The notes under the pieces were generated by a model, which was not told where the DNA came from, did no database searches, and saw only the letters and a program-made list of their open reading frames with translations. Shown here in pieces: positions 3 to 36,782 of a stretch of DNA of 64,000 nt (position 1 is its first letter; every line of letters begins with the position of its first letter). The stretch comes from Bacteroidales bacterium (lineage in GTDB: Bacteria; Bacteroidota; Bacteroidia; Bacteroidales; UBA3663). Made by a program: the position numbers and the translations under genes. The stretch covers positions 105 to 64,104 of the forward strand of contig JAEEUA010000001.1 in assembly GCA_016286775.1 (NCBI GenBank), in the 5' to 3' direction.

Positions 3-500
3 GTGGCTGCATGGAATATGCTTGCTTATACCGGCCAGCCGCTCAAGACTTTCGACAAGACCTTCCTGCGCGACATTCCACGTTCGACATTCGACAAGAC
101 CAAAATTGCGATGCCCGATCGTTTCGCCCGTCGTGCCGAACATTTCTACACAGAGTATCGTCGCGTCCGTCAGGGTGTTACGGCATGGGAGAGCGGCAAC
201 ATCAAGCTCTTCGGCAAACTCAGTTTCGATTCGTGCGAATCATCGATGAACAACTACGAATGTGGCAGTCCTGAACTGATTGCCATCTATCAGATCATGT
301 CCAAGCTGCCAGGTGTCTATGGCGGACGATTCTCGGGCGCTGGTTTCAAGGGTGCAGTCATTGCCTTGGTCGATCCTGCCTACAAGGAGAGCATCGAGAA
401 GTCGCTCACCGACCAGTATTTGGCCAAATTCCCCGAGTACCAAAGCCTCTTCTCTATCAACTGGGTCAAACCTGACGATGGCGCAAGGTTTGTAGAATAA
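3..500 (+). CDS. galK: Galactokinase, C-terminal part (5' end lies outside the window)
   Basis: The ORF is open at the window edge. The GHMP-kinase C-terminal motif GGRFSGAGFKGAVIALV and the RRAEHFYTEYRRV segment resemble galactokinase signature regions. Confidence 0.7.
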   Translation: MAAWNMLAYTGQPLKTFDKTFLRDIPRSTFDKTKIAMPDRFARRAEHFYTEYRRVRQGVTAWESGNIKLFGKLSFDSCESSMNNYECGSPELIAIYQIMSKLPGVYGGRFSGAGFKGAVIALVDPAYKESIEKSLTDQYLAKFPEYQSLFSINWVKPDDGARFVE

Positions 501-504
501 ACAT

Positions 505-1770
505 ATGGATTCAATATTGAAAAATATCAACAATTTACAAATATCACAACGAGGACTTGAGATGCCCTCTTCTCCGATACGTAAATTAGCCCCTTTGGCT
601 TATGCTGCTGAAGATCGTGGGATAAAGATTTATCGGCTAAACATCGGTCAACCAGATCTCCCATCTCCACCTACGGCAATTGAAGCACTGAAGCATATCG
701 ATAGGACTACACTTGAATACAGTCCTAGTCAGGGTTTCCTTTCTTTGCGCAAGAAACTTAGTGGTTATTACAAACGTTTCAATATAGACCTAACACCCGA
801 AGAAATCATAGTAACCAATGGTGGTTCAGAAGCCGTACTTTTTGCATTCCTCTCGTGTTTGAATCCTGGAGATGAAATCATTGTTCCAGAACCAGCATAT
901 GCAAATTATATGGCTTTTGCAGTTTCGGCAGGCGCTGTTATACGCACTGTTACAACTACAATTGATGAGGGTTTCTGTTTGCCTAAGGTTGAAAGGTTCG
1001 AGGAACTAATTAATGAGCGAACCAGGGCAATTCTTATTTGCAATCCAAATAACCCAACTGGTTATCTCTATAATCAGAAAGAGATGAATCAGATTCGTGA
1101 CCTTGTTTTGAAATATAATCTCTATTTGTTCTCAGATGAAGTTTATCGTGAATTCATTTATACAGGTAGTCCCTATATTTCAGCTATGCACTTAGAAGGG
1201 ATCGAGCAGAATGTAATACTTATTGATTCTGTTTCCAAGCGTTATTCTGAATGCGGAATTCGAATAGGAGCATTAGCGACCAAGAATGCTGAAGTCCGCA
1301 AGATTGTAATGAAGTTCTGCCAGGCTCGTCTATCACCCCCACTTATTGGCCAAATTATCGCAGAAGCTTCAATTGATGAAACAGAAGAATATGCACGTGA
1401 AGTATATGATGAATATATGGAACGCAGAAAATGTTTGATAGATGGAGTGAATAAGATTCCTGGTTGTTATACTCCTATCCCAATGGGTGCATTTTATACT
1501 GTTGCTAAGTTGCCAGTTGATGATTCTGAAAAGTTCTGTTCTTGGTGTCTAAGCGATTTCGTTTGGAGAGATGAATTAACACCCTATGGCTCTGAAGGAG
1601 AAACAATCATGATGGCACCAGCTGCTGGTTTTTATACAAATACTAATTTGGGGCGTAATGAAGTTCGTTTGGCCTACGTGTTGAACAAGAAGGACTTAAA
1701 GAGAGCTTTATATTTATTAGAGATTGCTCTTGAGAAATATAATCATATCGATAAATCTGGAAATTTATGA
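505..1770 (+). CDS. PLP-dependent aminotransferase, class I/II fold
   Basis: 421 aa starting at ATG 505. The [16 protein letters not shown] segment is a typical SK-x-G-x-R PLP-lysine region, and NPNNPTG is the conserved class-I motif. Confidence 0.75.
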
Positions 1771-10390: not shown

Positions 10391-11467
10391 ATGCATATAA
10401 TTGTTTCGGGTGATTATTGCGACAATTCTCGTGTCGATGAGTTTATATCAAGGAGTAATTATGATATTTTGTTTCAGCATGTTAAAGCTTTTCTTCACAA
10501 TGCAGATTTCAGGATTGTTAATTTTGAATTCCCTATAGTCTTAAATGGTAGTTCGCCAATAAAAAAAGCGGGACCTTCGCTTAAAGGGCAGCAGAAAGCG
10601 GTTGATGCCATAAAATCGGCTGGTTTTAATGTTTGTACATTGGCCAACAACCACATTCTTGACCAAGGCGAAAAATGCTGCATTGAGACAAAGCAACTTA
10701 TTGAGGCAGCTGGATTATCAACTGTTGGTGTCGGAAAGAATATTGAAGAGGCCTCGCATACATTATTATTAGAATGTTCAGGAGAAACTATCGCTGTCAT
10801 TAATTGTTGCGAGCATGAATTTTCAATTGCTACGGAGAAATCAGCCGGAGCAAATCCTCTCAATCCCATTCAACAGTATTATAAGATACAAGAGGCTCGA
10901 TCGAATGCTGATTATGTATTAGTAATTGTCCATGGTGGTCATGAAATGTGCCAGTATCCGTCTCCTCGTATGAAGGAGACTTATCGTTTTTTTGTTGATT
11001 CTGGTGCTGATGCTGTTGTGAACCATCATCAGCATTGTTATAGTGGTTATGAAGTTTATCATGGTAAACCTATTTTCTATGGGTTAGGGAATTTCTTATT
11101 TGACTGGGAGGGTAAAAGAAATGGACTATGGAATGAGGGTTATATGGTGAGCCTTGATTTTGTAAAAGGTCAAATGATTAATTTTCGATTGTTTCCTTAT
11201 ACACAGTGTAATGACGAGCCTGGAGTTAAGCTAATGCAAGGTAATGCTTTCGATGTTTTTGGAAAGCGTATTCAGGAGATTAATGAAATAATCGCTGATA
11301 ACCGACGTCTTAAAAATTCTTGGGAATCCTGGATAAAAAATAATAGTAAATATATTACTATGGATTATCAACCTTATCGGTCGAGACTCACCCAAGGATT
11401 GTTTGTGAGGGGGTTGCTTCCATCTTTTATTTCTAAAAAAAGAAATATAGTATTATTGATCATATAG
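10391..11467 (+). CDS. CapA-family (PGA_cap, metallophosphatase-fold) protein, paralog 1; the 3' end appears frameshifted
   Basis: Motifs NFEFPI, LANNHILD, VIVHGGHE and NHHQHCYSGYE. Strongly similar to the 12440..13570 product. The conserved tail continues in another frame after an A7 run (see findings). Confidence 0.7.
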   Translation: MHIIVSGDYCDNSRVDEFISRSNYDILFQHVKAFLHNADFRIVNFEFPIVLNGSSPIKKAGPSLKGQQKAVDAIKSAGFNVCTLANNHILDQGEKCCIETKQLIEAAGLSTVGVGKNIEEASHTLLLECSGETIAVINCCEHEFSIATEKSAGANPLNPIQQYYKIQEARSNADYVLVIVHGGHEMCQYPSPRMKETYRFFVDSGADAVVNHHQHCYSGYEVYHGKPIFYGLGNFLFDWEGKRNGLWNEGYMVSLDFVKGQMINFRLFPYTQCNDEPGVKLMQGNAFDVFGKRIQEINEIIADNRRLKNSWESWIKNNSKYITMDYQPYRSRLTQGLFVRGLLPSFISKKRNIVLLII

Positions 11468-11526
11468 AATGTGAGTCTCACCTTGACAGATTAAGATTCA
11501 TGATTCGTAATTTAAAAGATTAAAAT

Positions 11527-12447
11527 ATGAGAATTGATATTTTGAAAAGTAAAATTATTACAATTTACAAATCGCCTTTCATTGTTGTACAAAAAGTTTG
11601 GCGTTTTTTTGAACCTTTAGTTTCAGATGAGTTTTTTTTATTTGTCGCATTTCGACTGAGGGTGGGATATTGGCCAGATTTTAAACATCCAAGGTCTTAT
11701 AATGAAAAATTACAGTGGCTGAAACTTTACGACAAGCATCCTGAATACACTCAGATGGTTGACAAGGTAGCTGCTAAAGATTATGTGGCTGGTATTGTTG
11801 GTGAAAATTATATAATACCTACGATTGGAGTCTGGAACTCAGTCGAAGATATAGAATGGGAAAAGCTCCCTAATCAGTTTGTTTTGAAAGCATCGCATGA
11901 TAGTGGAGGTGTTGTGGTATGTAAAGATAAGACCAAACTCGATATTGATTTAGCAAAATATAAACTGCGAGGAGCAGGTAAAAAAGATTATACTAAATAT
12001 ACAAAAGAGTATCCATATTATGATGTTCCGCATCGTTTTATTGCTGAGCAATATATGGAGGATGAGAGTGGCTTCGAACTGAAGGATTATAAGTTTTTCT
12101 GCTTTGATGGAGAACCCAAATTCTTATTTGTTGCTACAGGCAGACAACAGCATGATACCCGCTTCGATTTTTATGATCTTGAATTCAACCACCTCCCAGT
12201 GTTAAATGGCCATCCAAATGCTGATATTTGGCCAACAAAGCCGCTAAAATTTAACGAAATGCTGGATGTCGCTGCCAAATTGTCGAAAGGAATTCCTCAT
12301 GTTAGAGTTGATTTATATAATATAAATGGAAAGATTTACTTCGGAGAATTGACATTCTTTCATTGGAGCGGAATGACTCCATTTGAACCAAGGGAATGGG
12401 ATTATAAGTTCGGTGATTATTTAAATCTGCCAAGAAACAATGATTAA
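11527..12447 (+). CDS. TupA-like ATP-grasp protein, paralog 1
   Basis: Motifs YNEKLQWLKLYD, FVLKASHDSGGVVVC, KDYKFFCFDGEPKFLFV and GKIYFGELTF match the ATPgrasp_TupA (teichuronopeptide-type) pattern. Confidence 0.65.
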   Translation: MRIDILKSKIITIYKSPFIVVQKVWRFFEPLVSDEFFLFVAFRLRVGYWPDFKHPRSYNEKLQWLKLYDKHPEYTQMVDKVAAKDYVAGIVGENYIIPTIGVWNSVEDIEWEKLPNQFVLKASHDSGGVVVCKDKTKLDIDLAKYKLRGAGKKDYTKYTKEYPYYDVPHRFIAEQYMEDESGFELKDYKFFCFDGEPKFLFVATGRQQHDTRFDFYDLEFNHLPVLNGHPNADIWPTKPLKFNEMLDVAAKLSKGIPHVRVDLYNINGKIYFGELTFFHWSGMTPFEPREWDYKFGDYLNLPRNND

Positions 12448-13570
12448 AATATTGATAGCTGGAGATTATGCTCCAAAGGATAGAATTCAGAGCCTTTTAG
12501 ATAAGGGTAATTATTCTTTTTTTGATAAAGTTCGCCAGATAACATCTGCTTATGATTTCTCAATTTTAAATTTGGAGGCTCCAATTGTAGAAAACACTCA
12601 GTCGAGTATCATAAAAAGTGGTCCTGCTTTAAAAACTACTCCTAATGTTGTTGATTCTATAAAATATTCAGGTTTCGATTGTGTCACATTAGCTAATAAT
12701 CATTTTAGAGATTATGGTGATGTCGGAGTAAATACTACATTAAGGATATTAAAAGAAACTGGTATTAAAAGCTTTGGGGGAGGATCGACTCTTGCTGAAT
12801 CTCAGAAAAACCTGATTATTGAGATAGGCGATAAAAAGGTTGGTTTTATCAATGTTTGTGAACATGAGTTTTCTATCGCAACTAAAAATCGAGGAGGCTC
12901 AGCTCCTTTGGACATTATAGATGTTTCGCTACGTATCAAACAGCTTAATAATCTTGTAGACTTTATAATTGTAATAGTCCATGGTGGGCATGAATATTAT
13001 CAGCTTCCTAGCTCAAGAATGAAAAAGACATACAGATTCTTTGTCGATGAGGGGGCTGATGTTGTAATTAATCATCATCAGCACTGTTATTCAGGTTATG
13101 AAGTGTATCGTGGTAAACCTATTTTCTATGGTTTAGGTAATTTCTGTTTTGATTGGAATAACAAGAGAAACTCAACATGGAATCAAGGTTTTATGGTTGG
13201 ACTTGTTTTAAGTGAAGAGATATCATTTGAACTGTATCCCTATGAGCAATGCGATAAAACACCAAGCATAAATTTGCTTACTGATCATAACAAACAAGAA
13301 TTTTTAAAGACTGTATTTAGTCTTAATTCTATAATAACAAACGATGAGATTTTAGAGAAGGAATTCGATAAGTTCTGTTCCTCTAAAAAACATTCAATTA
13401 AAAGTACGTTTTCTCCTCTCCAAGGAAGATTTATGCGAGGTTTAGCTAAATACAAGCTTATGCCATATTTTTTACCCACATCTAAGATTCTAAGTATTTT
13501 GAATCATGTCCAATGTGAGTCCCATCGAGATTTGGTTTGTAATGTACTAAAAAGAGGAATTGAAAAATGA
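12440..13570 (+). CDS. CapA-family (PGA_cap) protein, paralog 2 (full length)
   Basis: Same motif set as paralog 1 (NLEAPI, LANNHFRD, VIVHGGHE, NHHQHCYSGYE). It overlaps the upstream gene by 8 nt. Confidence 0.7.
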   Translation: MIKILIAGDYAPKDRIQSLLDKGNYSFFDKVRQITSAYDFSILNLEAPIVENTQSSIIKSGPALKTTPNVVDSIKYSGFDCVTLANNHFRDYGDVGVNTTLRILKETGIKSFGGGSTLAESQKNLIIEIGDKKVGFINVCEHEFSIATKNRGGSAPLDIIDVSLRIKQLNNLVDFIIVIVHGGHEYYQLPSSRMKKTYRFFVDEGADVVINHHQHCYSGYEVYRGKPIFYGLGNFCFDWNNKRNSTWNQGFMVGLVLSEEISFELYPYEQCDKTPSINLLTDHNKQEFLKTVFSLNSIITNDEILEKEFDKFCSSKKHSIKSTFSPLQGRFMRGLAKYKLMPYFLPTSKILSILNHVQCESHRDLVCNVLKRGIEK

Positions 13571-14649
13571 AAATAACAATTTTTACGGGTAGCTTATCTG
13601 GAGGCGGAGCCGAACGTGTCGCTTGTAATTTGGCTACATTCCTCTATAATCATGGTAATGAGGTTGAATTCCTAACTTTTGGCAATGATGAGAACTCATA
13701 TTATTATGATCCTCATATTAAAAGAATTAATCTATTAGAAGATTCAGAAAGAGGTAATGCTTTTAAGGAGTCGTTTATAAGAATTGTGAGATTTGTTAAA
13801 TATCTAGTTTTAAAAAAACAAGATGTCTATATTGTTACTTTGCCTGTAACTATAATCATGTTGTTATCATTTAGTTTTTTAACCAAATCTAAAATTATTG
13901 CTTCAGAAAGATGCGATCCACAGAAGCTACCCTCTAAGCAGCAAAAGGGTCTTAAATTTTTTTGTAAGAATGCTGATGGATGGATATTTCAGACTCCTGA
14001 GGTGATGAATTGGTATTTACCTAGCCTCGGTTCCACTAAACGAATTGTAATTCCTAATGCTATTAACCCCTCATTCCTTGAGAATCAACTGGATCAACAA
14101 AAGGAAAAAGTAATTATTACATCGGGACGTCTAAAAAAACAGAAGAATCATAAATTACTGATTGATTCCTTTGCATTGATAGCTTCGAAATTTATCGATT
14201 ATAAATTATTGATATTAGGAGAAGGTGGATTAAGGAATAGTTTGGAATCTCTAATAGAAGAATACCGGCTTAATGATCGTGTGACACTATTGGGGTATGT
14301 TGATAATGTCAAAGAACGATTAAGCCGTGCTTCTGTTTTCGTTTTGTCATCTTTATATGAAGGTATGCCCAATGCGTTAATTGAGGCCATGGCCCTTGGT
14401 TTACCTTGTATTTCTACTGATTGTGATGGTGGAGGAGCTCGTTATTTGATAAATGACGGAGAGAATGGCTTGCTTGTTCCCAATAATGATGTGAATGCAC
14501 TGGCTAATGCAATAGATAAGATTCTATCTAATGAAGAATTTGCTCAGAAACTCGGAAGAAATGCAGAAAAGGTGAAAGAAGACCTTCATCCTGATAAAAT
14601 CTACGGCTGTTGGCTTCAATTTATAGAAGATATAGTTCAAACAAAATGA
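13567..14649 (+). CDS. Glycosyltransferase family 4 (GT-B)
   Basis: N-terminal GGAERV, C-terminal EGMPNALIEAMALGLPCISTDCDGG (E-x7-E motif). Confidence 0.85.
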   Translation: MKITIFTGSLSGGGAERVACNLATFLYNHGNEVEFLTFGNDENSYYYDPHIKRINLLEDSERGNAFKESFIRIVRFVKYLVLKKQDVYIVTLPVTIIMLLSFSFLTKSKIIASERCDPQKLPSKQQKGLKFFCKNADGWIFQTPEVMNWYLPSLGSTKRIVIPNAINPSFLENQLDQQKEKVIITSGRLKKQKNHKLLIDSFALIASKFIDYKLLILGEGGLRNSLESLIEEYRLNDRVTLLGYVDNVKERLSRASVFVLSSLYEGMPNALIEAMALGLPCISTDCDGGGARYLINDGENGLLVPNNDVNALANAIDKILSNEEFAQKLGRNAEKVKEDLHPDKIYGCWLQFIEDIVQTK

Positions 14650-14698
14650 ATCCAATATTTCTTTATTGGAATAAATCGAAAAGATAATCACAATACTT

Positions 14699-15751
14699 AT
14701 GTCAAAAATCGCATTCGTAACAGATACGATGCATCCAGGTGGTTCTGAACGAGTCATTTCTGTATTGGCTAATGAGATGACTCGTCGAGGCCTATATATT
14801 GAGATCATTTGTCTTAGAGGGAAAGAGAGTTTTTATACTTTGGAAAGAAGAGTAAAAACAATCTTTATGGAGCAAGTCTTGAAACAACAATCGATGTATA
14901 ATAAGGTGAGATTCCTAAGGACTTATGTTAAGGAGGAGAATATTGATATTGTTATCCCATTTATGACACCAGTCTTCTGTTTTACTTTATTCTCTCTTTT
15001 AGGAGCTGGTAAAACGATTATTTGTTCGGAAAGAATTGATCCAACCAAAACATCGAAAGTTCGGAAATTGCTTCGAGCTATTCTTCTGCCAACAACTTCC
15101 TATCTTGTTGTTCAGACAGAGCAAATCAAGAAATATTATTCTAATAGTATCCAAAAGAGATGTTCTGTTATCTATAATCCTGTTTCTGATTCTTTTTTTG
15201 AGGAAAAACAAATTGTGCCCAAGAACAGATTCATGAGTGTTGGTCGATTGGCCCCCCAGAAGAATCAACGGATGCTCATAGATGCTTTCAGCCATGTTCA
15301 TCAGAAGTATCCTGACTATTCTCTCTCTATTTTCGGAGACGGTCCACTCAAAGAAGAACTGCAATCATATATTGATTCAAAGGGACTACAAGATGTTGTT
15401 AGACTAGAAGGAACATCTTCTGATATCAGCAAGGAATTGCACTCTTCGTTTGCTTTTTGTTTGACGAGTGATTTTGAGGGTATGAGTAATGCAATGATAG
15501 AAGCACTTTGTTCAGGTATTCCTTTGATTTCTACGAATGTTTCAGGTGCGGCTGAATTGCTTGGCAATAATGAGGGTGGTATGATAGTTCCCATTCGTGA
15601 TACGGATGCATTTGCATCTGCTATGCTGAAACTGATAGAGTCCCCTTCATTGGTTGAGAGAATGAGAAACTACAACTTGAAGAAACGTGAAGAGTTCCGT
15701 ACAAGCCAGATAGTAGATAAATGGATTGAAATTATAAATAGTTTTTCATAA
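14699..15751 (+). CDS. Glycosyltransferase family 4 (GT-B)
   Basis: N-terminal GGSERV, then EGMSNAMIEALCSGIPLISTNVSG (E-x7-E). Confidence 0.85.
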   Translation: MSKIAFVTDTMHPGGSERVISVLANEMTRRGLYIEIICLRGKESFYTLERRVKTIFMEQVLKQQSMYNKVRFLRTYVKEENIDIVIPFMTPVFCFTLFSLLGAGKTIICSERIDPTKTSKVRKLLRAILLPTTSYLVVQTEQIKKYYSNSIQKRCSVIYNPVSDSFFEEKQIVPKNRFMSVGRLAPQKNQRMLIDAFSHVHQKYPDYSLSIFGDGPLKEELQSYIDSKGLQDVVRLEGTSSDISKELHSSFAFCLTSDFEGMSNAMIEALCSGIPLISTNVSGAAELLGNNEGGMIVPIRDTDAFASAMLKLIESPSLVERMRNYNLKKREEFRTSQIVDKWIEIINSFS

Positions 15752-16636
15752 ATGAAAGAAAGCAATAAAAAGATAGTAAGTACTATACTAAAATGTCTGT
15801 CTTTTTTGCCAGACAGTATTGTACTGTCGTTAGAATACTTTTATAAGCTCCATCGTTTCCCGAATTTGAGGAATCCACAGCGCTTTTCTGAATGGATGCA
15901 GTGGTATAAGATGAATTACCGGAATGAGGTGATGTTCGAGTGCGTTGACAAATATGCTGTTCGAAACTATGTGAAAAGGATGGGATGTGAGAAGTACTTG
16001 AACACCTTGTATCAGGTATGTAATGATGCCAAAGAAATTGACTTCGATAAGCTTCCCAAGCAGTTCGTCATAAAAACTACGGATGGCGGCAACGGGGAAA
16101 ATGTATTTGTCTGTGCGGATAAAAACACTTTAGATATACCCTCCACAATTAGTAAAGTGAACAGCTGGCGCCATAAAAAGATGGAAGATGTTGGTCGCGA
16201 ATGGGCTTATTCTGGATGTGCTGATTCGCGTATCATTGTAGAAAAATACCTATCTGACCCTGAAAGCAAAGATGGGTCAATAGATGATTACAAATTGCTT
16301 TGTTTCAATGGTAAGTTCCGATATCTGTGGGTTGATAAAAACCGCTATTCCAATCATAGACGAGGTTTCTGGGACGAAAAACTAAAATTCAGACCAGAAG
16401 TAGTTAGTGACCATCCCACTTTTGAAGTTCCACCAGCCCTTCCAGCCAATACACAGGAGATGATAGAGGTTGCGGAAAAGCTTGCAGCAGATTTCCCTTT
16501 TGCTCGTATCGATTTTTATGATATTGAGGGGAAGATTTATTTCGGGGAGATTACATTTTACCCGTGGAGCGGCTATTGCCAATATACTCCTGACAGTTTC
16601 GATTTTGAAATGGGCAGTTATTTCAAGAATACATAA
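15752..16636 (+). CDS. TupA-like ATP-grasp protein, paralog 2
   Basis: Motifs FSEWMQWYKM, FVIKTTDGGNGENVFVC, DDYKLLCFNGKFRYLWV and GKIYFGEITFYPWSG. Diverged from paralog 1. Confidence 0.65.
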   Translation: MKESNKKIVSTILKCLSFLPDSIVLSLEYFYKLHRFPNLRNPQRFSEWMQWYKMNYRNEVMFECVDKYAVRNYVKRMGCEKYLNTLYQVCNDAKEIDFDKLPKQFVIKTTDGGNGENVFVCADKNTLDIPSTISKVNSWRHKKMEDVGREWAYSGCADSRIIVEKYLSDPESKDGSIDDYKLLCFNGKFRYLWVDKNRYSNHRRGFWDEKLKFRPEVVSDHPTFEVPPALPANTQEMIEVAEKLAADFPFARIDFYDIEGKIYFGEITFYPWSGYCQYTPDSFDFEMGSYFKNT

Positions 16637-16638: not shown

Positions 16639-17466
16639 ATGACAATCTCAGTTCTGATGTCTGTTTATAAGAACGAACAGGCTAAATTTTTGGATAGAGC
16701 CCTTCAAAGTGTATGGGATGATCAGACGTTGAAACCTGATCAGATCGTCTTGATTGAGGATGGACCCTTGGGTTCAGACTTGCGTTCAGTTATTGATTCC
16801 TGGCAAGCCAAATTAGGTAGTGTCCTTTGTTTGCTGAAGAATGAGGTCAATATAGGATTGACTAAATCCTTGAATAAGGGCATCAAATACATCAAATCGG
16901 AATTGATTGCTCGTATGGATAGCGATGATATCTCTGCTCCCGATAGATTCAAACTTCAACATGATTACTTCGTCGAGCATCCAGAGGTTCATATCATAGG
17001 AGGATCTCTTCAGGAATTCGATGAAAATAATGATTGTTTGAATATACGACATTATCCATTGTGTCCTAATGCTGCTAGAGCATACATACAGAAAGCTTCC
17101 CCCCTAGCTCATCCCACAGTGATGATGCGTAAAAAGATATTTGATGAAGGGTTGCTATACAATGAAAAGTATCGTACTAGCCAAGATATAGCTCTCTGGT
17201 TCGATGCCCTTCTTGCAGGGTTTAATATCAGTAATGTGCCACAGGTGACCATTTTTTTCAGGAGAGATGGGGATGTTTTCAAGAGGAGAGGAAGAGAAAA
17301 GGCGTGGAATGAGTTTAAGATCTATATGAATGGAGTATATAAGCTCTTTGGTCCAATTACTCCCAAATATATCTTCCCCATTAGTCGTTTCGTATTTCGA
17401 TTGATGCCTTCATCAGTTATTAAGTATATCTATGGCAGCAAAGCTCGTAAGAAACTATTGAAATAG
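16639..17466 (+). CDS. Glycosyltransferase family 2
   Basis: ISVLMSVYKNE start and ARMDSDDIS (DxD) motif. Confidence 0.85.
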   Translation: MTISVLMSVYKNEQAKFLDRALQSVWDDQTLKPDQIVLIEDGPLGSDLRSVIDSWQAKLGSVLCLLKNEVNIGLTKSLNKGIKYIKSELIARMDSDDISAPDRFKLQHDYFVEHPEVHIIGGSLQEFDENNDCLNIRHYPLCPNAARAYIQKASPLAHPTVMMRKKIFDEGLLYNEKYRTSQDIALWFDALLAGFNISNVPQVTIFFRRDGDVFKRRGREKAWNEFKIYMNGVYKLFGPITPKYIFPISRFVFRLMPSSVIKYIYGSKARKKLLK

Positions 17467-17467
17467 T

Positions 17468-18625
17468 ATGGAGATTGTTCAGGAACAACTTCTTGGATTG
17501 GCTTATCTCGCTATCCATCCTAAAAATCCGGTTCCCAAGGCATTAGAAAAGAGTATAGATTGGTGTGCTCTTTTGGAGGAGGCAAAGAAGCAATCCCTGA
17601 TTGGGGTTGCTTTTGTTGGTTTTAAGGTATGGAGTGCTTCGAATTCGGTTAATTCACCGGATGCGGCAATTGACAAACGCCTGCTGACGCAATGGTATGG
17701 GTATTGTGAGAAGATACGGGAAGATAATCTCCTGCTGAATAGACGGACTGCTCAAATTTGCAAGAACTTCGCGAAGGATGGTTTTCGGACTTCGGTAATG
17801 AAAGGGCCTGGGAATGCACGTCTTTATGGTCGGGAGCTATCCCTGCTTCGTGCTTCTGGAGATATCGACGTCTGGGTGGAAGGTGGCTTTGAGCGTGTGA
17901 ACAACTATGTGCAGCAGATGGCTCCTACGAAGCACGTCAGCGAAAAGGACATGGAATTCAGAGTTTTTTCTGATACTGAGGTTGAAGTGCATTATCGTCC
18001 CTATATCATGCGGAATCCTTTCCGCAACATGCGACTTCAACAGTTCTTTGAAACCCAGACTGAGGCTTGCTTTACGAACAAGGTGCAGCTATTGGCCTCC
18101 GACAAGAATGGTGGAGAACTGCAGATGGATGCCTATGTCTCAACAACGTCCTTCAACCTCGTTCATCAGCTGGCACACATCCAACGTCACTTGTTCGCAG
18201 TGGGTATGGGGCTGAGGCATGTGATGGATTATTATTTCCAGCTGGTTCATGCCGAGGCGACCTTGAGCCGGGAAGAGAAGGAAGAGGTCATTGGCGTCGT
18301 AAAATCCACCGGGCTCGAGAGATTGGCCTGTGCCCTTACATGGATTCTATCAGCATGCTTCGGCTTGCCGAAATCCTGTGAATTGTGGGAACCGAACAAG
18401 AATGATGGTGAGTTCCTGCTTGAAGACATTTTGAAGACTGGCAATTTTGGACAAGGAGATGAGCACCTGCGTGCGGGGATTCGTTCAGGAGGCATCAAGT
18501 CATTGTTTGATGTGCTGAGGCATAATTGGGCGATGACGAGATTCGACCGAACAGATTGGTTCTGGGGACCGATGTATCGGGTATATTATTTCTGCTGGCG
18601 CAAGCGAAAGGGATTTCAGGTATAA
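17468..18625 (+). CDS. Uncharacterised nucleotidyltransferase-family protein (NTP_transf_5-like)
   Basis: VMKGPGNARLYG...SGDIDVWVEG resembles the K-G-x-ALA...GDIDLLV core of that family. It is visibly more GC-rich than its neighbours. Confidence 0.5.
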   Translation: MEIVQEQLLGLAYLAIHPKNPVPKALEKSIDWCALLEEAKKQSLIGVAFVGFKVWSASNSVNSPDAAIDKRLLTQWYGYCEKIREDNLLLNRRTAQICKNFAKDGFRTSVMKGPGNARLYGRELSLLRASGDIDVWVEGGFERVNNYVQQMAPTKHVSEKDMEFRVFSDTEVEVHYRPYIMRNPFRNMRLQQFFETQTEACFTNKVQLLASDKNGGELQMDAYVSTTSFNLVHQLAHIQRHLFAVGMGLRHVMDYYFQLVHAEATLSREEKEEVIGVVKSTGLERLACALTWILSACFGLPKSCELWEPNKNDGEFLLEDILKTGNFGQGDEHLRAGIRSGGIKSLFDVLRHNWAMTRFDRTDWFWGPMYRVYYFCWRKRKGFQV

Positions 18626-18661
18626 CACGGCTCGATCGACGGATTGATTCGATTAATCAGG

Positions 18662-19651
18662 ATGAATATCAAGCGAATCAGGTTGCGATTTCAGCAGTTC
18701 GGTGGCTTCCGTTTAGTGAGGGAGTATGCCCGGTTAGGGGTACTGACTGCAATCGGGACAGAGTTTGTACGTATTTTGGTGGCGCGGAAACCTCCTAAGC
18801 TTATCAATTCCGTTATCTCTCAAAAACTGGAGCCTTTCCTGCAGGATAAGTATATGCCGGTTCTGCTTGAACGTAAAGCATACTACGAAGGCCTGACGTT
18901 TGAACATAAGCGCAGCCAATTTGTCTGGTTCTGCTGGTTGCAGGGAATTGAACAGGCTCCGCCAATTGTTAGGGCTTGTCTTGCTTCGTTGAAACAGAAT
19001 CTGAAAGATCGAGAAATCATCATTGTCACTGAGAAGAATTGGAGAGAATATATTGATCTGCCAGAGCATATTATCAACAGATGGGAGAAGAAGCAGATTC
19101 CACCAGCACTTTTCACGGATTTACTGCGTCTGCAACTGCTCATACGGCATGGCGGTACGTGGATAGATTCTACAGTCTTATGTACAGGCACGGCGCATGC
19201 GAAGGAATTGCTCGATGCGGATCTTTTCCTGTTCCAATACAGGTCGCCAGAGAGTTCACCAGCTTCCTTTGAAGGCATATCCAATTGGTTTATCACATCG
19301 TGCACCAACAATCCGGTTCTGCTTGTATTGAGGGATCTGCTCTATGCCTATTGGAGGGATTATGATTGTACCTTGTACTATTTCATCTTCCACCTTTTCT
19401 TTTCAATGCTGGCGAAAGAGTATCCCGAGACAATTGCCGAGATGCCGTATGGCTATAGTGTGTGGAGCCTGACGTTGGAGAATCATTGGTGGGAACCATT
19501 CAATAAAATAAAGTGGGACAAATTAACCGGTTTGGTTAATTTCCATAAGCTTTATTATCGGATCGGCACTACAATTGAGAAGAATAAAGGTAATTATTAT
19601 CATTGGATTTTGGAGGAGTATAAGAAAAAAGATGAAATTAACAGCCATTAA
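18662..19651 (+). CDS. Capsular polysaccharide synthesis protein (Caps_synth / GT32-like)
   Basis: VWFCWLQGIEQAPPIVRACLASLKQN...IIIVTEKNWREYIDLPEHI...FTDLLRLQLLIRHGGTWIDSTV matches the family pattern. ATG 18662 is chosen because the track start at 18644 is TTG. Confidence 0.6.
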   Translation: MNIKRIRLRFQQFGGFRLVREYARLGVLTAIGTEFVRILVARKPPKLINSVISQKLEPFLQDKYMPVLLERKAYYEGLTFEHKRSQFVWFCWLQGIEQAPPIVRACLASLKQNLKDREIIIVTEKNWREYIDLPEHIINRWEKKQIPPALFTDLLRLQLLIRHGGTWIDSTVLCTGTAHAKELLDADLFLFQYRSPESSPASFEGISNWFITSCTNNPVLLVLRDLLYAYWRDYDCTLYYFIFHLFFSMLAKEYPETIAEMPYGYSVWSLTLENHWWEPFNKIKWDKLTGLVNFHKLYYRIGTTIEKNKGNYYHWILEEYKKKDEINSH

Positions 19652-20576
19652 ATGGATATTTCTTTTTGCAGCAATATTTGTGTTAATGCACATTAATAAT
19701 CGTTTTGAGATTTTTGCTCTAAATTGCAATAGAGCAAACGATTTTTTTAATGGTTCCTTCCGAATAATGACATATAATGTCAATGCGCCTTTAGGTAATG
19801 AAGATATAGAAAAGGTCAGGGGGGCATTAATTGAAGAGATTGAAGAACAGAAACCAGATATCTTGTGTATTCAAGAATTGTCGTCTATGATTTTTAAAAA
19901 TATTCAATTACCGTTGGATAGTGCTTTTGGATATACTGACAGTTTGGCGATAAAGAATCAACCGTTACGTTATAGAATATATTCAAAATATCCGATACGA
20001 AATTTCCAACGCCATAAATGTGTGATTGAGATTGACACTGTTGGATTAGATTCTTTGAAGAAAGAAATCAAACAGCTACAAAAGGCTATGCAAGTCTATT
20101 CGGCGGAAATTGAAGTAATGCCTGACAAATGGATTACAGTTTTCGCTTGCCATCTTCGTTCCAGCGCTTATACTACAGCCCGCAGATCGATGGATGAAGA
20201 TACATCATGGTTGGATGGATTACCATTGTATTTCGAGAATTATAAGATAGGTGAGAAGATTCGAAATTGGGAGGCTGATAACATTCGTTTATTCCTAAAA
20301 GTTTTAGAAGCTAATGATACACCTGTCATTATTGCAGGAGACTTTAATGATTGGAGTGGTAGCTATTGTATGAATACCATTAGAGATGGGAAATACAAGG
20401 ATTCATGGTGGGAGGGTGGCTTAGGTTTTGGCATCACCTATGATGGATGGCATCTGAAGTTGAGACTGGACCATATCCTTTACAGTCATCATTTCAAGCT
20501 GGAGAATGTATATGTCGAGAAGTCGAAGTTCTCGGACCATCGGCCGTTGGTAGCTGATTTCACTCTTCTTCCTTGA
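19632..20576 (+). CDS. Endonuclease/exonuclease/phosphatase (EEP) family protein with an N-terminal membrane anchor
   Basis: Motifs MTYNV, ILCIQEL, IIAGDFNDW and SDHRPLVADF. The start at MKLTAIKWIFLFAAIFVL gives a signal/anchor. Confidence 0.7.
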   Translation: MKLTAIKWIFLFAAIFVLMHINNRFEIFALNCNRANDFFNGSFRIMTYNVNAPLGNEDIEKVRGALIEEIEEQKPDILCIQELSSMIFKNIQLPLDSAFGYTDSLAIKNQPLRYRIYSKYPIRNFQRHKCVIEIDTVGLDSLKKEIKQLQKAMQVYSAEIEVMPDKWITVFACHLRSSAYTTARRSMDEDTSWLDGLPLYFENYKIGEKIRNWEADNIRLFLKVLEANDTPVIIAGDFNDWSGSYCMNTIRDGKYKDSWWEGGLGFGITYDGWHLKLRLDHILYSHHFKLENVYVEKSKFSDHRPLVADFTLLP

Positions 20577-26582: not shown

Positions 26583-26854
26583 CGGCGATATTTTCGTTAT
26601 AATCGAAACCATTAAAGAAAAATAACATCAGACATTGAAACAAGTAGGTGAAAATGGCAGACAACCTCGGCCCAATTGCCTGGTTGTTTCTGCCGGAAAA
26701 TGAGCAGGTCCAATACCTGAAAAAAATTGCACTTCGTGCAGAAAATCCGTCCGGATCCATGTGATCATCATGATATGGGCGAGCTTTATTTTTTGCGCAT
26801 GGTTTCTACTGAATGTCAGTTTATTCAATATACCTTTTTAAAAATATAATGCTT

Positions 26855-29800
26855 ATGAAAAAAATCTTACTTTCTGTTGCTATGCTCTGCATGGCATTGT
26901 GTGGGCGAGCTGAGACACAAGATGCCTATGTGGGCTGGCCTGCCAATTACGATGGCGTGATGCTCCAGGGCTTCTGGTGGGACAGCTACGATGCCACCAA
27001 ATGGTCGAATCTGACAGCACGCGCTAACGAGCTGTCGCAGTATTTTGATCTGATATGGATTCCGAACTCTGGCACATGCTCGGGTGACTACAATGGTTCT
27101 CAAGGTAAGTCGATGGGCTATGATCCCTGCTATTGGCTGCATCATAATTCGTGCTTCGGCACGGAGGCTGAACTACGCACGATGATCGACACTTATAAGG
27201 AGAAAGGTGTTGGATTCATCGCTGATGTGGTGGTTAACCATAAGAAGGGTAAGACAAATTGGTGCGACTTCCCTAATGAGTCTGTAGATGGAACTGGCCA
27301 AAATGCAGGAATTACGTATAATCTCGAATGGGATAATAGCTACTTCTCCGGCATCTGCAAGAATGATGAATGCAACTATTACAAGGATGAATTAGGGAAC
27401 TATCCCTATAAGACTTCCGGCGAGTATGACACAGGCGATAACTTTGATGGTTATCGTGACCTGGATCATACGAATCAACATGTTCGAGAGAACATTATGA
27501 TCTATCTCCACTTCCTGCTGAATGAGTTGGGCTTTGCGGGCTTCCGCTATGATATGGTGAAAGGCTATAGCGCAGGTTATATCCAGCAATATAACAATAA
27601 TGAGTATGCCCGTGGCCTTTATGGTACTTCTGCAGTCCCTACCTTTTCCGTAGGAGAATTTTGGGACAATCAAGAGAATACTCAAAACTGGATTAATGGT
27701 ACGGGAAGGACTTCGGCTGCTTTCGACTTTGCTCTGAAGTTTACGCTCAATGATGCCATCAGCAGAGGCAATTACGCAGCCCTACAGAACAAGAGCTTTA
27801 CCTATGACCCCAGTTACAGTCGTCTCTCAGTGACATTCGCCGACAACCACGATACGGGACGTGAATCGTCCAAACTCGAAAATAACTGGTCGGCTGCCAA
27901 TGCGTTCATTTTGGCTTCGCCAGGTACACCTTGTGTTTGGTTCCCCCATTATGAGGCTGACCCTGTGAACATTCGTGCGATGATCCTGGCTCGCAAGGCT
28001 TGCGGAATTACGAATACGGGCTATGAGATTTTGAAGCAGTATCCTGTTGAGAATAATGGCGGATATATCCTTGAAACCAAGGGCTCGAAGGGCAGTGTAT
28101 ATGTTCAGCTGGGCTCTGCTGCCGACGATGGCACGCCTGATGGCTATACGCTCGTGGCAGAGGGCGATGCCTACAAGTTTTACTCAACGAAGGCTGACTT
28201 TGCTTCGGTGAATGTGTCTCCCAATGGAGGGCCTTTTACCACCGAGACGAAGGATGTTACTTTGACAGCTGTCAATGCGAATGAGGCCTGGTACAAAATC
28301 GATAATGGAGATCCAGTTTCATTCAGCGGTGAAAAGACTGTTCAGATTGGCAATGGATGTAATGTGAACGAAGAAATCACCATCAGTTGGGGTGCAACGG
28401 GTGCTGATAATGTTGAATATACCGGCTCCACAACCTTCACGAAGCGAGATGCATACAACACACCTACGGTAGAAGAAAATGAAGTAAGCGTCTTCTTCGA
28501 GACGAATGCAAATGAGGTTACCATCTGGGCATGGGATGATGATGAAGTCAACTATACCGGAGGCGTTTGGGAGAATAAGCCTGCCATGAACCTGATGGGC
28601 GTGAACGAGGCTGGAAAACTTGTCCATAAGTGGACCTATTCCGGAACAGGCAAGCCCACTCATGTGCTCTTCGTGGCTGATGACAATCAGACATCTGACT
28701 TCGCATTTGTCAATCATGGCTACTACACCGAGTCGGGCATTTCGTATCATCTGGGCACGAATACTGTCTATTTCGATAATACAGTCAGCAATTGGGAACA
28801 TGTATATTATTATGCGTGGGACAGCAATGACCATGACAAGGCTGCCTGGCCGGGTGAAGAGATTACAGCTGTTAATGGTCAATATAAGGTGACATTGGAC
28901 GGTGTTTATACCAATATCATTTTCAACGATGGAAATGGCAGCATATTGGGCGTGACCAAGACAAAGGATCTTTCCGTGATTGACGGAGCCACCTATGCAA
29001 TGGGCACCAATACCGTATCGTTCGATAACAGCCAGCTGGGTTGGGACAATGTCTATTACTATGCATACACTGACAATGAAATTCCTAAAGTGGAATGGCC
29101 GGGTGAGTCGCTCAGTGAGAACACGAATGGTATCTATGGTGTAACCTTGCTTGAGGGGTACACAAAGGTGATCTTCCACAATAATACTACAGGTATCGTT
29201 GGGGAAACCAAGACGGCTAATCTGGATGTGGTGGATGGCACCGTTTATACGATAGGCGCCAATACCGTCTATTTCGACAACAGCATTTCCCAGTGGAACG
29301 TTGTCTATTACTATGCTTTCACCGAGGATGGTACTTCGAAGAAGGATTGGCCAGGCGAAAAGTTCGCTGCCAACCCTGAGGATAAGTACGAAGTAACTTT
29401 GTCGGATATTTACACCAAAATTATCTTCAACAATGGTACGGGAGGTAATGTGGGCGTCAGCCAGACGGAAGACCTTACGATTGAGAACGGCAAGGAATAT
29501 GCATTGGCTACCCATACAGTTTATTACGACAACAGCCAAACAAATTGGGAGAATGTGTATTATTACACCTTCACCGACAAGGGTGCTTCTAAAAAGGCTT
29601 GGCCTGGCGAAACCATTGCTGCAAATGCAAACGGCAAGTATGAAGTTACCTTGCTGGGTGGCTACTCTTCCATTATCTTCAGCGATGGAAATGGCGGCGT
29701 GAAACGGGTGAACCAGACGGAAGACCTCACGGTAGAAGATGGCAAGACTTATACGCTTACTGCCAATACGGTTTATTTCGACAATACCGGTGCCGATTGG

Positions 29801-30952
29801 GCTCAGGTTTATTACTATGCTTTCACTGACAATAAGACACCCAAGGCAGCATGGCCGGGAGAAAGGATAAATGAACTCAATTCGGCCGGATATTATGAAG
29901 TTACCTTGATGGAGGGCTATACTACCATCGTCTTCAACAAGGGTGTGGATGGTGAAGGAAATCAGACTGGAGACCTTCCTGTCGAAGATGGCAAGATCTA
30001 TTCGCTGAATGCAGGAGCCAATACCCAGGATGGCTATACGGTCTATTTCAATAATACATCCAATTGGCCTAAAGTTTGTGCTCATATTTGGAACGACCAA
30101 AATCAAAACCTTTATGGCGCATGGCCAGGTCAGGAATTGACGACCAAGACCGATGATGGCTATTACATGGTTCACGTCGATGATGCATCGTATTGCAACA
30201 TCATCTTCAACATTGGAAACAATGGCCAGCAGACTGCTGATCTTGCAGCCGTTGACGGACGTGTTTATACACCAGCTGGTATGACTGACGACCTTGTCTT
30301 GACAGAGGGATATGCATACTTCAATGCCAGTGAGTTTACAGCTACTACCGCCAAGTACACTCGTGTGGCTAATAACAATTGGGGTACCATCATCCTGCCA
30401 TTCGAACTTACGAGTGATGAAAATGTCCAGTATTATGAGCTCAAGTCGATTGGTGAAGAAACGATGACGTTTGAGGAAGTCGAAACTGTGCCTGCAGGAC
30501 AACCTGCGGTGTTCTATCTGACAGAAACTGGTTCCCTCACAATCAACGCAGCGAATGTAAAGGTTGTTCCAACGGCCGATGAAAACAAATATGGCTCCGA
30601 TGTTTCGTCATGGTACATGAACGGTACATACAAGACGGTGAATAAGGCATCGACAAGCAATAATTATATCTATTATATTGCAAATAATGCGTTCTGGTGC
30701 TCAAAGTATGATGAATCAACACAGTCTTATCCGTCAATCGAGGCCAAACCATTCCGTGCTTGGATAGAGCATGCTTCTTCCGAACCTATGTTTGCCCGCT
30801 TCCGTATCATGGATCAGGAGGACCCTGAAGGCATAGAATTGATTCAATCTGAGACCTCTGATAGCTCAATCTATGACCTCTATGGTCGTCAACTGTCTGC
30901 TCCCAAGAAAGGCTTCAATGTCATCAATGGCAAGTTGATTATCATCAAGTAA
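26855..30952 (+). CDS. GH13 alpha-amylase with tandem carbohydrate-binding repeats and a T9SS C-terminal domain
   Basis: GH13 regions I-IV are present: DVVVNH, GFRYDMVKG, GEFWD and FADNHDT. Signal peptide MKKILLSVAMLCMALCG. Six tandem repeats. The C-terminus is YDLYGRQLSAPKKGFNVINGKLIIIK. Confidence 0.85.
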   Translation: MKKILLSVAMLCMALCGRAETQDAYVGWPANYDGVMLQGFWWDSYDATKWSNLTARANELSQYFDLIWIPNSGTCSGDYNGSQGKSMGYDPCYWLHHNSCFGTEAELRTMIDTYKEKGVGFIADVVVNHKKGKTNWCDFPNESVDGTGQNAGITYNLEWDNSYFSGICKNDECNYYKDELGNYPYKTSGEYDTGDNFDGYRDLDHTNQHVRENIMIYLHFLLNELGFAGFRYDMVKGYSAGYIQQYNNNEYARGLYGTSAVPTFSVGEFWDNQENTQNWINGTGRTSAAFDFALKFTLNDAISRGNYAALQNKSFTYDPSYSRLSVTFADNHDTGRESSKLENNWSAANAFILASPGTPCVWFPHYEADPVNIRAMILARKACGITNTGYEILKQYPVENNGGYILETKGSKGSVYVQLGSAADDGTPDGYTLVAEGDAYKFYSTKADFASVNVSPNGGPFTTETKDVTLTAVNANEAWYKIDNGDPVSFSGEKTVQIGNGCNVNEEITISWGATGADNVEYTGSTTFTKRDAYNTPTVEENEVSVFFETNANEVTIWAWDDDEVNYTGGVWENKPAMNLMGVNEAGKLVHKWTYSGTGKPTHVLFVADDNQTSDFAFVNHGYYTESGISYHLGTNTVYFDNTVSNWEHVYYYAWDSNDHDKAAWPGEEITAVNGQYKVTLDGVYTNIIFNDGNGSILGVTKTKDLSVIDGATYAMGTNTVSFDNSQLGWDNVYYYAYTDNEIPKVEWPGESLSENTNGIYGVTLLEGYTKVIFHNNTTGIVGETKTANLDVVDGTVYTIGANTVYFDNSISQWNVVYYYAFTEDGTSKKDWPGEKFAANPEDKYEVTLSDIYTKIIFNNGTGGNVGVSQTEDLTIENGKEYALATHTVYYDNSQTNWENVYYYTFTDKGASKKAWPGETIAANANGKYEVTLLGGYSSIIFSDGNGGVKRVNQTEDLTVEDGKTYTLTANTVYFDNTGADWAQVYYYAFTDNKTPKAAWPGERINELNSAGYYEVTLMEGYTTIVFNKGVDGEGNQTGDLPVEDGKIYSLNAGANTQDGYTVYFNNTSNWPKVCAHIWNDQNQNLYGAWPGQELTTKTDDGYYMVHVDDASYCNIIFNIGNNGQQTADLAAVDGRVYTPAGMTDDLVLTEGYAYFNASEFTATTAKYTRVANNNWGTIILPFELTSDENVQYYELKSIGEETMTFEEVETVPAGQPAVFYLTETGSLTINAANVKVVPTADENKYGSDVSSWYMNGTYKTVNKASTSNNYIYYIANNAFWCSKYDESTQSYPSIEAKPFRAWIEHASSEPMFARFRIMDQEDPEGIELIQSETSDSSIYDLYGRQLSAPKKGFNVINGKLIIIK
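28754..30274 (+). repeat. Six in-frame tandem repeats of about 249-252 bp (83-84 aa) inside the amylase gene; a degenerate seventh copy lies at 28481-28753
   Basis: Each unit reads TVYFDN-x4-W-x2-VYYYA(W/F/Y)-x7-9-WPGE-x-(I/F/L)...Y-x-VTL...(I)IF(N/S)-x-G...T-x-DL-x-(V/I)-x-(D/N)G-x-(Y)... This is the CBM25/26-like starch-binding pattern. Confidence 0.85.
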
Positions 30953-36361: not shown

Positions 36362-36376
36362 TATTGTCGGGGTTAT

Positions 36377-36728: not shown

Positions 36729-36736
36729 TATATTTG
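36729..36736 (+). promoter_or_regulatory. Candidate -7 box (TATATTTG) for the 36.8-47.8 kb cluster
   Basis: Matches TAnnTTTG, 47 nt upstream of ATG 36783. Confidence 0.35.
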
Positions 36737-36782
36737 CCGACGAATTTGTGTTTGGTTTGACTTTTAGGTCGCGATTTTGCAC

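Follow-up and report, generated by a model that had tools for sequence, protein, structure and literature searches.

Results

A capsule locus with two CapA-like and two TupA-like genes

The 64,000-nt stretch of Bacteroidales DNA analyzed here, referred to as the window (assembly GCA_016286775.1, contig JAEEUA010000001.1), carries near its left end a gene cluster in which two genes for CapA-like proteins (CapA1 and CapA2) and two genes for TupA-like ATP-grasp ligases (TupA1 and TupA2) are interleaved with glycosyltransferase genes (Table 1). Both CapA genes abut TupA1. Our sequence comparisons and structure models point to a role for the CapA-like proteins as dedicated, optional partners of this ligase, most similar to the epimerase MslH. 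A first-pass annotation had listed the six genes from CapA1 to TupA2 and their families from the DNA sequence; all six open reading frames (ORFs) were found exactly where it had placed them, and Pfam returned the same families, with the two genes between CapA2 and TupA2 (GT4a and GT4b) matching Glycos_transf_1/Glyco_transf_4.

The genes from 505 to 20576 all lie on the plus strand and are separated by tiny gaps or overlap. CapA2 overlaps both of its neighbors, TupA1 by 8 nt at its start and GT4a by 4 nt at its stop. Read 5′ to 3′, the Pfam assignments of the left half are an aminotransferase, rmlA, rmlC, hexapeptide and GNAT acetyltransferases, and an acyltransferase-3, followed by a WaaS/CpsH-type glycosyltransferase, a Wzx flippase, a DegT aminotransferase, and an EpsG-type polymerase. 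Next come CapA1, TupA1, CapA2, GT4a, GT4b, and TupA2, and then genes for a GT2 glycosyltransferase, an NTP_transf_5 protein, a Caps_synth protein, and an endonuclease/exonuclease/phosphatase-family (EEP) protein. A Wzi-like gene lies 3′ of the locus, followed by a WecA/MraY-type initiating transferase in the opposite orientation. Judged by this gene content, the region from 505 to 20576 is a Wzx/Wzy-type capsule polysaccharide locus, and the Wzx, EpsG-type polymerase, and glycosyltransferase genes around the TupA-like genes give them a cell-surface polysaccharide location. Among the ORFs of at least 160 amino acids (aa) between 505 and 24560, a Pfam scan found neither PgsB (Mur-ligase type) nor PgsC.

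Table 1. Features of the capsule locus, in window coordinates.
Feature	Position	Strand	Evidence
Aspartate-aminotransferase-type pyridoxal phosphate (PLP) aminotransferase, first gene of the capsule locus	505..1770	+	Pfam Aminotran_1_2, 2e-49
CapA1, PGA_cap, MslH-like, C-terminally truncated by a frameshift	10391..11467	+	PF09587, 3e-58
A7 run in an A-rich tract, where a 1-nt deletion puts CapA1 out of frame	11435..11441	+
Out-of-frame remnant of the CapA1 C terminus	11437..11523	+	Three-frame translation and alignment to relatives
TupA1, TupA-like ATP-grasp amide ligase (predicted), flanked by both CapA genes	11527..12447	+	PF14305, 1e-69
CapA2, intact PGA_cap/MslH-like protein	12440..13570	+	PF09587, 2e-54
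GT4a glycosyltransferase	13567..14649	+	Pfam Glycos_transf_1, 7e-47
GT4b glycosyltransferase	14699..15751	+	Pfam Glycos_transf_1, 2e-33
TupA2, second TupA-like ATP-grasp ligase (predicted), distinct lineage	15752..16636	+	PF14305, 3e-45
Right-hand block: GT2, NTP_transf_5, Caps_synth, EEP protein	16639..20576	+	Pfam

The CapA-like proteins resemble the epimerase MslH

Both CapA-like proteins cover the whole 255-position PGA_cap model (PF09587), with 197.6 bits for CapA1 and 185 bits for CapA2 (cut-off 27). They are 42% identical to each other over 356 residues (E 4e-108), which bears out the high core similarity reported at first pass, where the quoted motif was also correct letter for letter. 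The sole NCBIfam match of either protein was MslH (NF038314), at 91 and 72 bits against an equivalog cut-off of 700. With these scores, and with a capsule locus in place of a lasso-peptide context, CapA1 and CapA2 are not MslH orthologues but possible mechanistic relatives only. A sequence search of the PDB likewise returned MslH entries as the sole relatives (1.6e-20 with the single sequence and 1.1e-24 with a 41-sequence profile). An AlphaFold (AF2) model of CapA1 built on the 41-sequence alignment reached a predicted local distance difference test score (pLDDT) of 93.5, and its top four Foldseek matches were MslH entries with the calcineurin-like fold (E 4e-20, template-modeling score on the query (TMq) 0.71-0.74). 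The runners-up were 5′-nucleotidases and YmdB (E ∼4e-9, TM <0.5), which leaves MslH ahead by 11 orders of magnitude.

MslH holds one Ca ion through E44, N87, H259, and H261, and the α-proton of the C-terminal residue is removed and put back by two His/Asp pairs, H88/D91 and H295/D11 (PMC10406935). Residues E44, N87, H88, D91, H259, and H295 of MslH correspond to E46, N87, H88, D91, H181, and H215 of CapA1, all of which are invariant in the 41 sequences. The same is true of D8 in the N-terminal GD motif, the position matched to D11, bringing to seven of eight the mapped MslH residues that are invariant across these subfamily members. Motif I is without the histidine of true phosphoesterases, reading D-Y-C in CapA1 and D-Y-A in CapA2, and motif II is N-x-E, not G-D; both features are as in MslH. 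The Metallophos model (PF00149) gave CapA2 18.4 bits, below its cut-off of 21.5, and did not match CapA1. The subfamily also has extra conserved motifs (NCCEHEF, HC, and CESH) that are not visible in the printed segments of the MslH alignment.

PgsA/CapA of Bacillus is membrane-anchored. The two CapA-like proteins here start directly with the first β-strand and the GD motif, and their maximum 19-residue hydropathy is 0.88 and 1.36. No hydrophobic segment, and hence no N-terminal anchor of the PgsA type, was found in CapA1 or CapA2, nor was any such segment present in TupA1 or TupA2, so all four proteins are predicted to be cytoplasmic. The first-pass annotation had linked CapA to the poly-γ-glutamate machinery; with neither PgsB nor PgsC found and the membrane anchor lacking, that link is one of name only.

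The PGA_cap subfamily is large, with more than 6000 clusters at E ≤1e-10. A tblastn search of a plasmid collection with CapA2 returned Bacillus pXO2-type capA and homologues on haloarchaeal megaplasmids. Those in Natrononativus (L088) and Haladaptatus (L089) are full-length CapA-family proteins, ∼30% identical to CapA2, and their neighbors (ABC-transporter, amidase, PIG-L deacetylase, Gfo/Idh/MocA oxidoreductase, and γ-glutamyltransferase genes) give the surroundings a catabolic look. There is no TupA gene beside these megaplasmid homologues, and they are uninformative for the arrangement described below.

The TupA-like proteins are predicted amide-forming ligases

TupA1 and TupA2 matched ATPgrasp_TupA (PF14305) over model positions 1-241, with 234.9 and 154.9 bits (cut-off 25). 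At 32% identity (E 6e-50), they are more diverged than the CapA pair, as had been noted. The AF2 model of TupA1 (pLDDT 88) matched amide-/ester-forming ATP-grasp ligases in Foldseek, namely Ddl (D-Ala-D-Ala ligases), LysX/ArgX, and PsnB (E 2e-6, probability 1.0). Residues K121, E174, D262, and E274 are invariant in a 35-sequence alignment that includes TupA2, and by analogy they would serve in nucleotide and Mg binding. A conserved ATP-grasp Glu is essential in CfmP (PMC13419641). Searches of the PDB with the TupA1 sequence or profile gave chance matches only and no solved TupA-like structure.

In the one characterized TupA-like domain, Cj1438C, the C6 carboxylate of glucuronate in the Campylobacter jejuni capsule is amidated before the next sugar is added (PMC11800379), and a TupA-family gene of Vibrio alginolyticus is required for a capsule phage receptor (PMC11382117). 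We regard it as very probable that the TupA-like ligases of this locus amidate the polysaccharide. The idea that the capsule carries ATP-dependent, amide-linked substituents, which had been proposed from the DNA sequence, is a reasonable one given the Cj1438C precedent, the TupA1 fold, and the linked aminotransferase. The accompanying count of one or two substituents cannot be read from the presence of two CapA genes, because both flank the same ligase and one is frameshifted.

In many Bacteroidales loci, among them L080, L085, L093, L094, L096, and L097, a GT2 gene lies directly upstream of a TupA-like gene, mirroring the GT2-ATP-grasp fusion of Cj1438. In L082, a CapA gene sits between the GT2 and TupA-like genes.

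CapA and TupA-like genes form a widespread cassette

A scan of one genome per species yielded 72 loci with relatives of CapA1 at 38-58% identity. Nearly all are from Bacteroidales, with a few from Lachnospiraceae, Clostridia, and Bacteriovoracaceae bins. By tblastn, 67 of the 72 have a TupA-like gene on the same strand as CapA. The two genes are adjacent in 46 loci, with the TupA-like gene immediately downstream in 42 (≤151 bp) and immediately upstream in 4, and in 14 loci they lie about one gene's length apart (583-1429 bp). Three of the five loci in which no TupA-like gene was found end within 450 nt after CapA. A survey of this kind had been suggested at first pass. The other genes of the window do not follow CapA in the same way: the aminotransferase was found in 1 of 72 loci and rmlA in 4, and Wzx, GT4, and DegT gave weak class-level matches only.

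For the 46 adjacent pairs, the pairwise identities of the CapA proteins correlate with those of their TupA neighbors at r = 0.58, a value reached in 0 of 2000 permutations, which shows co-inheritance as a unit and is no proof of shared function, as adjacency alone could give part of it. For CapA and Wzx in the same loci, r was 0.06. The link is one-sided: six of six TupA1 relatives (68-78% identity, on long contigs) have no PGA_cap gene within 5-10 kb. CapA-like and TupA-like genes thus form a conserved, widespread cassette in which CapA is optional. A full-text literature search on the Pfam names found no description of PGA_cap/TupA pairing in polysaccharide loci, although the components are of known kinds, the TupA-like amidoligases and the PGA_cap family with its one known epimerase. 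Iyer et al. reportedly defined the TupA-like group in 2009, in a paper that lies outside this search.

Locus variants differ in CapA content

The block TupA1-GT4a-GT4b-TupA2-GT2-NTP_transf_5-Caps_synth-EEP exists in four versions that differ in CapA content. There is no CapA gene in L085-L087, in which TupA1 is 88% and TupA2 98% identical to the window; a CapA1-type gene lies upstream of TupA1 in L082 and L083; a CapA2-type gene lies downstream of TupA1 in L097-L099, with CapA2 copies that are 99% identical; and the window has both types, one on each side of TupA1. In all variants compared, CapA genes flank TupA1 and never TupA2. Whether or not CapA genes are present, TupA2 is 87-98% identical in L082, L085, and L097; GT4b is 83-98% identical across the variants, and the order GT2-NTP_transf_5-Caps_synth-EEP is kept in the same three loci. 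A symmetrical arrangement of two CapA/TupA pairs does not hold up in this comparison, and we rejected it in favor of one ligase with two alternative partners and one unpartnered ligase. We consider it probable that CapA acts on the product of TupA1.

When the window is compared to L097, CapA2, GT4a, and GT4b are 98-99% identical, but TupA1 no more than 88%. This identifies the window locus as a recombinant between a CapA1-TupA1 cassette and a block headed by CapA2 (CapA2-GT4a-GT4b-TupA2), and the mosaic structure leaves TupA1 with a CapA gene on both sides. GT4a, inherited as a unit with CapA2, varies most among the genes of the block: 99% identical in loci with CapA2 (L097/L098), it is 62-65% identical in those without it (L082, L085), against 83-98% for its neighbors. 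This pattern would fit a transferase that recognizes a modified residue, and plain linkage explains it equally well.

CapA1 is truncated by a frameshift

The CapA1 ORF encodes 358 aa. Its relatives have 373-381 aa and continue with ...KKKKYSIIDHIECESHLDRLR..., and the difference is due to the deletion of a single A in the A7 run, which ends CapA1 early. Where the window reads TCTAAAAAAAGAAATATAG, the relative in L082 reads ACTAAAAAGAAAAAATATAGC, encoding TKKKKYS. The lost tail, KKKYSIIDHIECESHLDRLRFMIRNLKD followed by a stop codon, is still encoded in another frame and ends 3 nt before the TupA1 ATG. Its C-E-x-H motif (CESH) is near-invariant, with the C, E, and H columns at least 90% conserved in the CapA alignment, and CapA2 keeps this tail. 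An identical 358-aa CapA1 occurs in eight contigs, and the same deletion was seen in all four that were examined (L073-L076, from two NCBI assemblies and two SRA runs), which makes it a property of the strain and not a one-off assembly error. A reasonable explanation is the loss of a redundant copy, given that an intact CapA2 lies across the ligase gene. Alternatively, the A-run could be a site of slippage-based phase variation.

The linked aminotransferase and amino-acid supply

The aminotransferase that opens the locus matched NCBIfam PRK07568 at 581 bits. Its best PDB match is 2gb3 (6e-93), and all PDB matches at E ≤1e-20 are α-amino-acid aminotransferases (aspartate, aromatic, and other). 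Its G+C content of 0.385 (0.30 at third codon positions) is like that of the capsule genes and unlike the 0.52 of the GHMP kinase flank, and the gene runs 4 nt into the start of rmlA. Homologues that are 94-97% identical head loci L085 (138-1391) and L097, and one that is 77% identical lies between two TupA-like genes in L096 (5921-7177). From these sequence relationships, the aminotransferase probably supplies the amino acid for the TupA ligases.

The GHMP (galactokinase-like) kinase fragment at the left edge of the window (3-500) has the G+C content of the core genome, and its relatives flank several different capsule loci. In L085/L086, the 3′ end of this kinase gene is duplicated on either side of the aminotransferase (2-130 and 1999-2367), which looks like a recombination scar at the locus boundary. 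We rejected a PduX/CobD-like route to an amino-alcohol phosphate, formed by this kinase and the aminotransferase, because the kinase has core-genome composition and borders several different loci, because of its scar-like duplication, and because the aminotransferase is of the aspartate type.

Other features of the window

In the right-hand block, the conserved NTP_transf_5 gene (PF14907, "uncharacterised nucleotidyltransferase", 17468-18625) has a G+C content of 0.48, above that of its neighbors. The Caps_synth (18644-19651) and EEP (19575-20576) ORFs as listed overlap by 77 nt and both have TTG starts; EEP relatives have ∼312-317 aa, so the true EEP start is probably further downstream. Beyond the capsule locus, a 1379-aa α-amylase with six CBM26 starch-binding modules is encoded at 26813-30952. 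The region 34000-51000 has a G+C content of 0.52-0.58, compared to 0.42-0.48 around it, and encodes a GH2 glycosidase (minus strand), a DUF3575 protein, and then large ORFs of 331, 404, 674, and 1092 aa for which Pfam gave no match at E ≤0.01; a foreign surface-structure operon is one possible reading of the region. A protein of the Wzc-like tyrosine-kinase/chain-length type (GNVR and AAA_31) is encoded at 51417-54727, ∼30 kb from the capsule locus, which places export genes apart from the synthesis locus.

Discussion

A proposed route to an epimerized amide decoration

The data suggest the following scheme. On the cytoplasmic side, glycosyltransferases would assemble the repeat unit on undecaprenyl diphosphate. 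TupA1 and TupA2 would each use ATP to convert a carboxylate, on the repeat unit or a nucleotide sugar, into an acyl phosphate that is captured by the amine of an amino acid. The most likely carboxylate would be the C6 group of a hexuronic acid, whose ugd gene would then lie outside the window. CapA2, and CapA1 where intact, would then bind the free α-carboxylate of the TupA1-attached residue through the metal and invert the α-carbon by means of H88/D91 and H215/D8, so that an L-amino-acid decoration becomes a D one. GT4a would extend the modified unit, and Wzx and the EpsG-type polymerase would complete the polymer. The sequence data show the families, folds, and cassette linkage, that CapA is optional, and that the locus is a mosaic with a frameshift, whereas we infer which group accepts the amino acid, which amino acid it is, and that CapA epimerizes it. 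We rate the scheme as a whole, in which an amino acid is joined to a sugar carboxylate by TupA and optionally epimerized by CapA, at slightly worse than even. Cα epimerization as the action of the CapA-like proteins, drawn from the likeness to MslH, is a tentative assignment, and the broader proposal, that CapA-like proteins of capsule loci are glycan-level epimerases that invert a TupA-attached L-amino acid in place, is held with similar reserve.

Findings from other systems are consistent with this chemistry. The authors of the MslH work noted its homology to CapA and proposed that CapA/PgsA puts D-Glu into polyglutamate by epimerization (PMC8179263), and Bacillus subtilis pgsBC makes 95% L-polyglutamate without pgsA and 75% D with it (PMC6029982). 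The Escherichia coli O110 polysaccharide contains GalA amidated with D-allo-threonine, the Cα epimer of L-threonine (PMC7685785), which makes epimerization in place plausible in glycans. A blastn search of 5,426 complete E. coli genomes with window positions 10391-13570 gave no match.

A number of observations weigh against the epimerase scheme. The fold is that of metallophosphoesterases, and the near-invariant Cys of CapA1-type proteins at the position of the missing motif-I His might rebuild a second metal site, although CapA2 has Ala there. Residue D8 is matched to MslH D11 by offset only and not by a printed alignment, and H184, the counterpart of metal ligand H261, is conserved in only 35 of the 41 sequences. 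The epimerase role of the subfamily would be one by analogy with MslH, and adjacency by itself could account for part of the correlated identities of CapA and TupA. The window has no ugd gene for uronic-acid synthesis, so that the acceptor sugar is not given by the locus. Finally, the E. coli O91 O antigen contains a glycine amide of GlcA, and its gene cluster, which we located in NZ_CP031906.1 (1844608-1854663; L091/L092), has no annotated ATP-grasp/TupA-like or CapA gene between galF and gnd. The O91 "glycosyltransferases" (three between wzx and wzy, and the upstream GT2) are GT2 proteins and one 389-aa protein with a weak Glyco_trans_1_2 match. TupA-like ligases are therefore not used for all amides of this sort, and the amidating enzyme of O91 must be of another kind or encoded elsewhere.

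Other activities for the CapA-like proteins have to be considered at this point. In C. jejuni, a ligase is followed by the HAD phosphatase Cj1435 (PMC11800379), and by this precedent TupA could attach a phosphorylated amine (ethanolamine-P, serinol-P, or aminopropanol-P) from which CapA strips the phosphate. The calcineurin-like fold, the secondary structural matches to nucleotidases and YmdB, and the weak Metallophos match of CapA2 are all compatible with a phosphatase, and an optional enzyme of this kind would fit the pattern of zero, one, or two CapA genes too. However, that match is below cut-off and CapA1 has none, the motif-I His is missing, and motif II is that of MslH. Moreover, the literature consulted reports phosphatase activity for no PGA_cap protein, and the sole one characterized is an epimerase (PMC10406935). 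The cassette is not accompanied by a PLP enzyme of the HisC/CobD type, and the α-amino-acid type of the linked aminotransferase favors an amino acid over an amino-alcohol phosphate as the ligase substrate, for which a phosphatase is not needed. We therefore think a phosphatase unlikely. Only a little more probable is that the CapA-like proteins hydrolyze some other bond, for instance as an amidase with an editing or trimming role on the decoration, or that they have no catalytic role and serve as a scaffold between the ligase and the assembly machinery, a part once proposed for PgsA in polymer elongation or export. Such roles are compatible with the loosely defined function of the PGA_cap family, with haloarchaeal relatives in surroundings of a catabolic kind (amidase, deacetylase, and γ-glutamyltransferase genes), and with the NCCEHEF, HC, and CESH motifs, which add conserved Cys, His, and Glu residues beyond the printed MslH alignment. 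Against this, seven of the eight mapped active-site residues do not vary at all, which speaks for a catalytic site there, and soluble, cytoplasmic proteins without a membrane segment are unlikely to act in export.

The ligases themselves could act differently, by N-acylating an amino sugar (for example, a dTDP-amino-dideoxyhexose from RmlA/DegT) or with TupA2 extending the TupA1 residue into a short peptide. The locus does contain rmlA and rmlC as well as genes for a DegT aminotransferase and two N-acetyltransferase-like proteins. O antigens with N-aminoacyl amino sugars have been described (PMC7685785), and teichuronopeptide, from which TupA takes its name, contains peptide. Yet the TupA1-GT4-GT4-TupA2 block occurs in loci without rml or DegT (L085-L087, L082), the characterized homologue activates a sugar carboxylate (PMC11800379), and an MslH-like partner needs a free α-carboxylate, which is absent from an N-aminoacyl group. 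We judge this alternative to be less likely than either of the other two. That the locus makes a poly-γ-glutamate-type capsule component is highly improbable: all that favors it is the name of the Pfam family and a source annotation that reads "poly-gamma-glutamate synthesis protein", whereas the CapA-like proteins have no N-terminal anchor, no PgsB/PgsC homologue is among the ORFs scanned, and the locus is a standard Wzx/Wzy polysaccharide locus. For these CapA-like genes, the annotation is misleading.

If CapA-like proteins do epimerize a TupA1-attached amino acid, the cassette would be a plug-in module that makes new serotypes through the handedness of a decoration alone, and thus a compact means of diversifying capsule antigens and phage receptors in gut Bacteroidales. 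It would also explain the origin of D-residues such as D-allo-threonine in bacterial polysaccharides, for which the literature consulted gave no genetic basis, and support an epimerase role for PgsA/CapA in general. The function of the large PGA_cap/CapA family has been unclear since the polyglutamate capsule genes were cloned, and the capsule cassette offers a second, independent, and genetically simple context. The epimerase hypothesis would become directly testable with a soluble CapA-like enzyme, a soluble ATP-grasp ligase, and natural loci with zero, one, or two CapA genes.

Comparison with known systems

The TupA protein of Bacillus halodurans (teichuronopeptide) and WemR of Proteus mirabilis belong to PF14305 as well, and the prediction for them is that they attach amino acids to polysaccharides of the cell surface (PMC13419641, citing Iyer et al. 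2009). No CapA-like partner is described for them in the literature consulted. The C-terminal domain of Cj1438 from the C. jejuni HS:2 capsule is of the same ligase family and likewise comes from a capsule locus, and its amidation step precedes the next glycosyl transfer, an order that we liken to the one proposed here. In C. jejuni, the ligated compounds are amino-alcohol phosphates provided by the PLP-dependent Cj1436/Cj1437 and then dephosphorylated by a HAD enzyme. In contrast to Cj1435-Cj1438, the window has an aspartate-type PLP enzyme and a PGA_cap partner, and Pfam found no HAD-family protein in the locus. The C. jejuni capsule pathway is ABC-transporter dependent, whereas the window locus is of the Wzx/Wzy type.

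PgsA/CapA of the Bacillus PgsBCA system shares the Pfam family and is 27-33% identical over residues 2-249. It is also partnered with an ATP-dependent amide ligase (PgsB), genetic data connect it with the D-content of the polymer (PMC6029982), and an epimerase function has been proposed for it (PMC8179263). Unlike the CapA-like proteins of the window, which have neither PgsB, PgsC, nor an anchor, PgsA is membrane-anchored in a complex with PgsB and PgsC, and the PgsBCA product is a homopolyamide, whereas the partner here is an ATP-grasp enzyme and the predicted product a decorated polysaccharide.

The closest known relative is MslH, the epimerase of the C-terminal Trp of a Streptomyces lasso peptide (PDB 8gq9). 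The identity is only ∼19-25%, and MslH has 440 aa compared to ∼375 aa. MslH acts on a precursor peptide in a reaction that is enhanced by the leader-binding protein MslB1, whereas the CapA-like proteins have the extra Cys/His motifs and the CESH tail and are encoded in polysaccharide loci beside TupA-like ligases. At the same time, the two share the Pfam family, similarity at the 1e-20 to 1e-24 level in sequence and up to TMq 0.74 in structure, and equivalents of the Ca-site and of both His/Asp pairs. MslH also works beside an ATP-dependent amide-forming enzyme, as is proposed for CapA and TupA. The residue on which MslH acts has a free α-carboxylate and an acylated amine, and an amino acid amide-linked to a uronic acid shares both.

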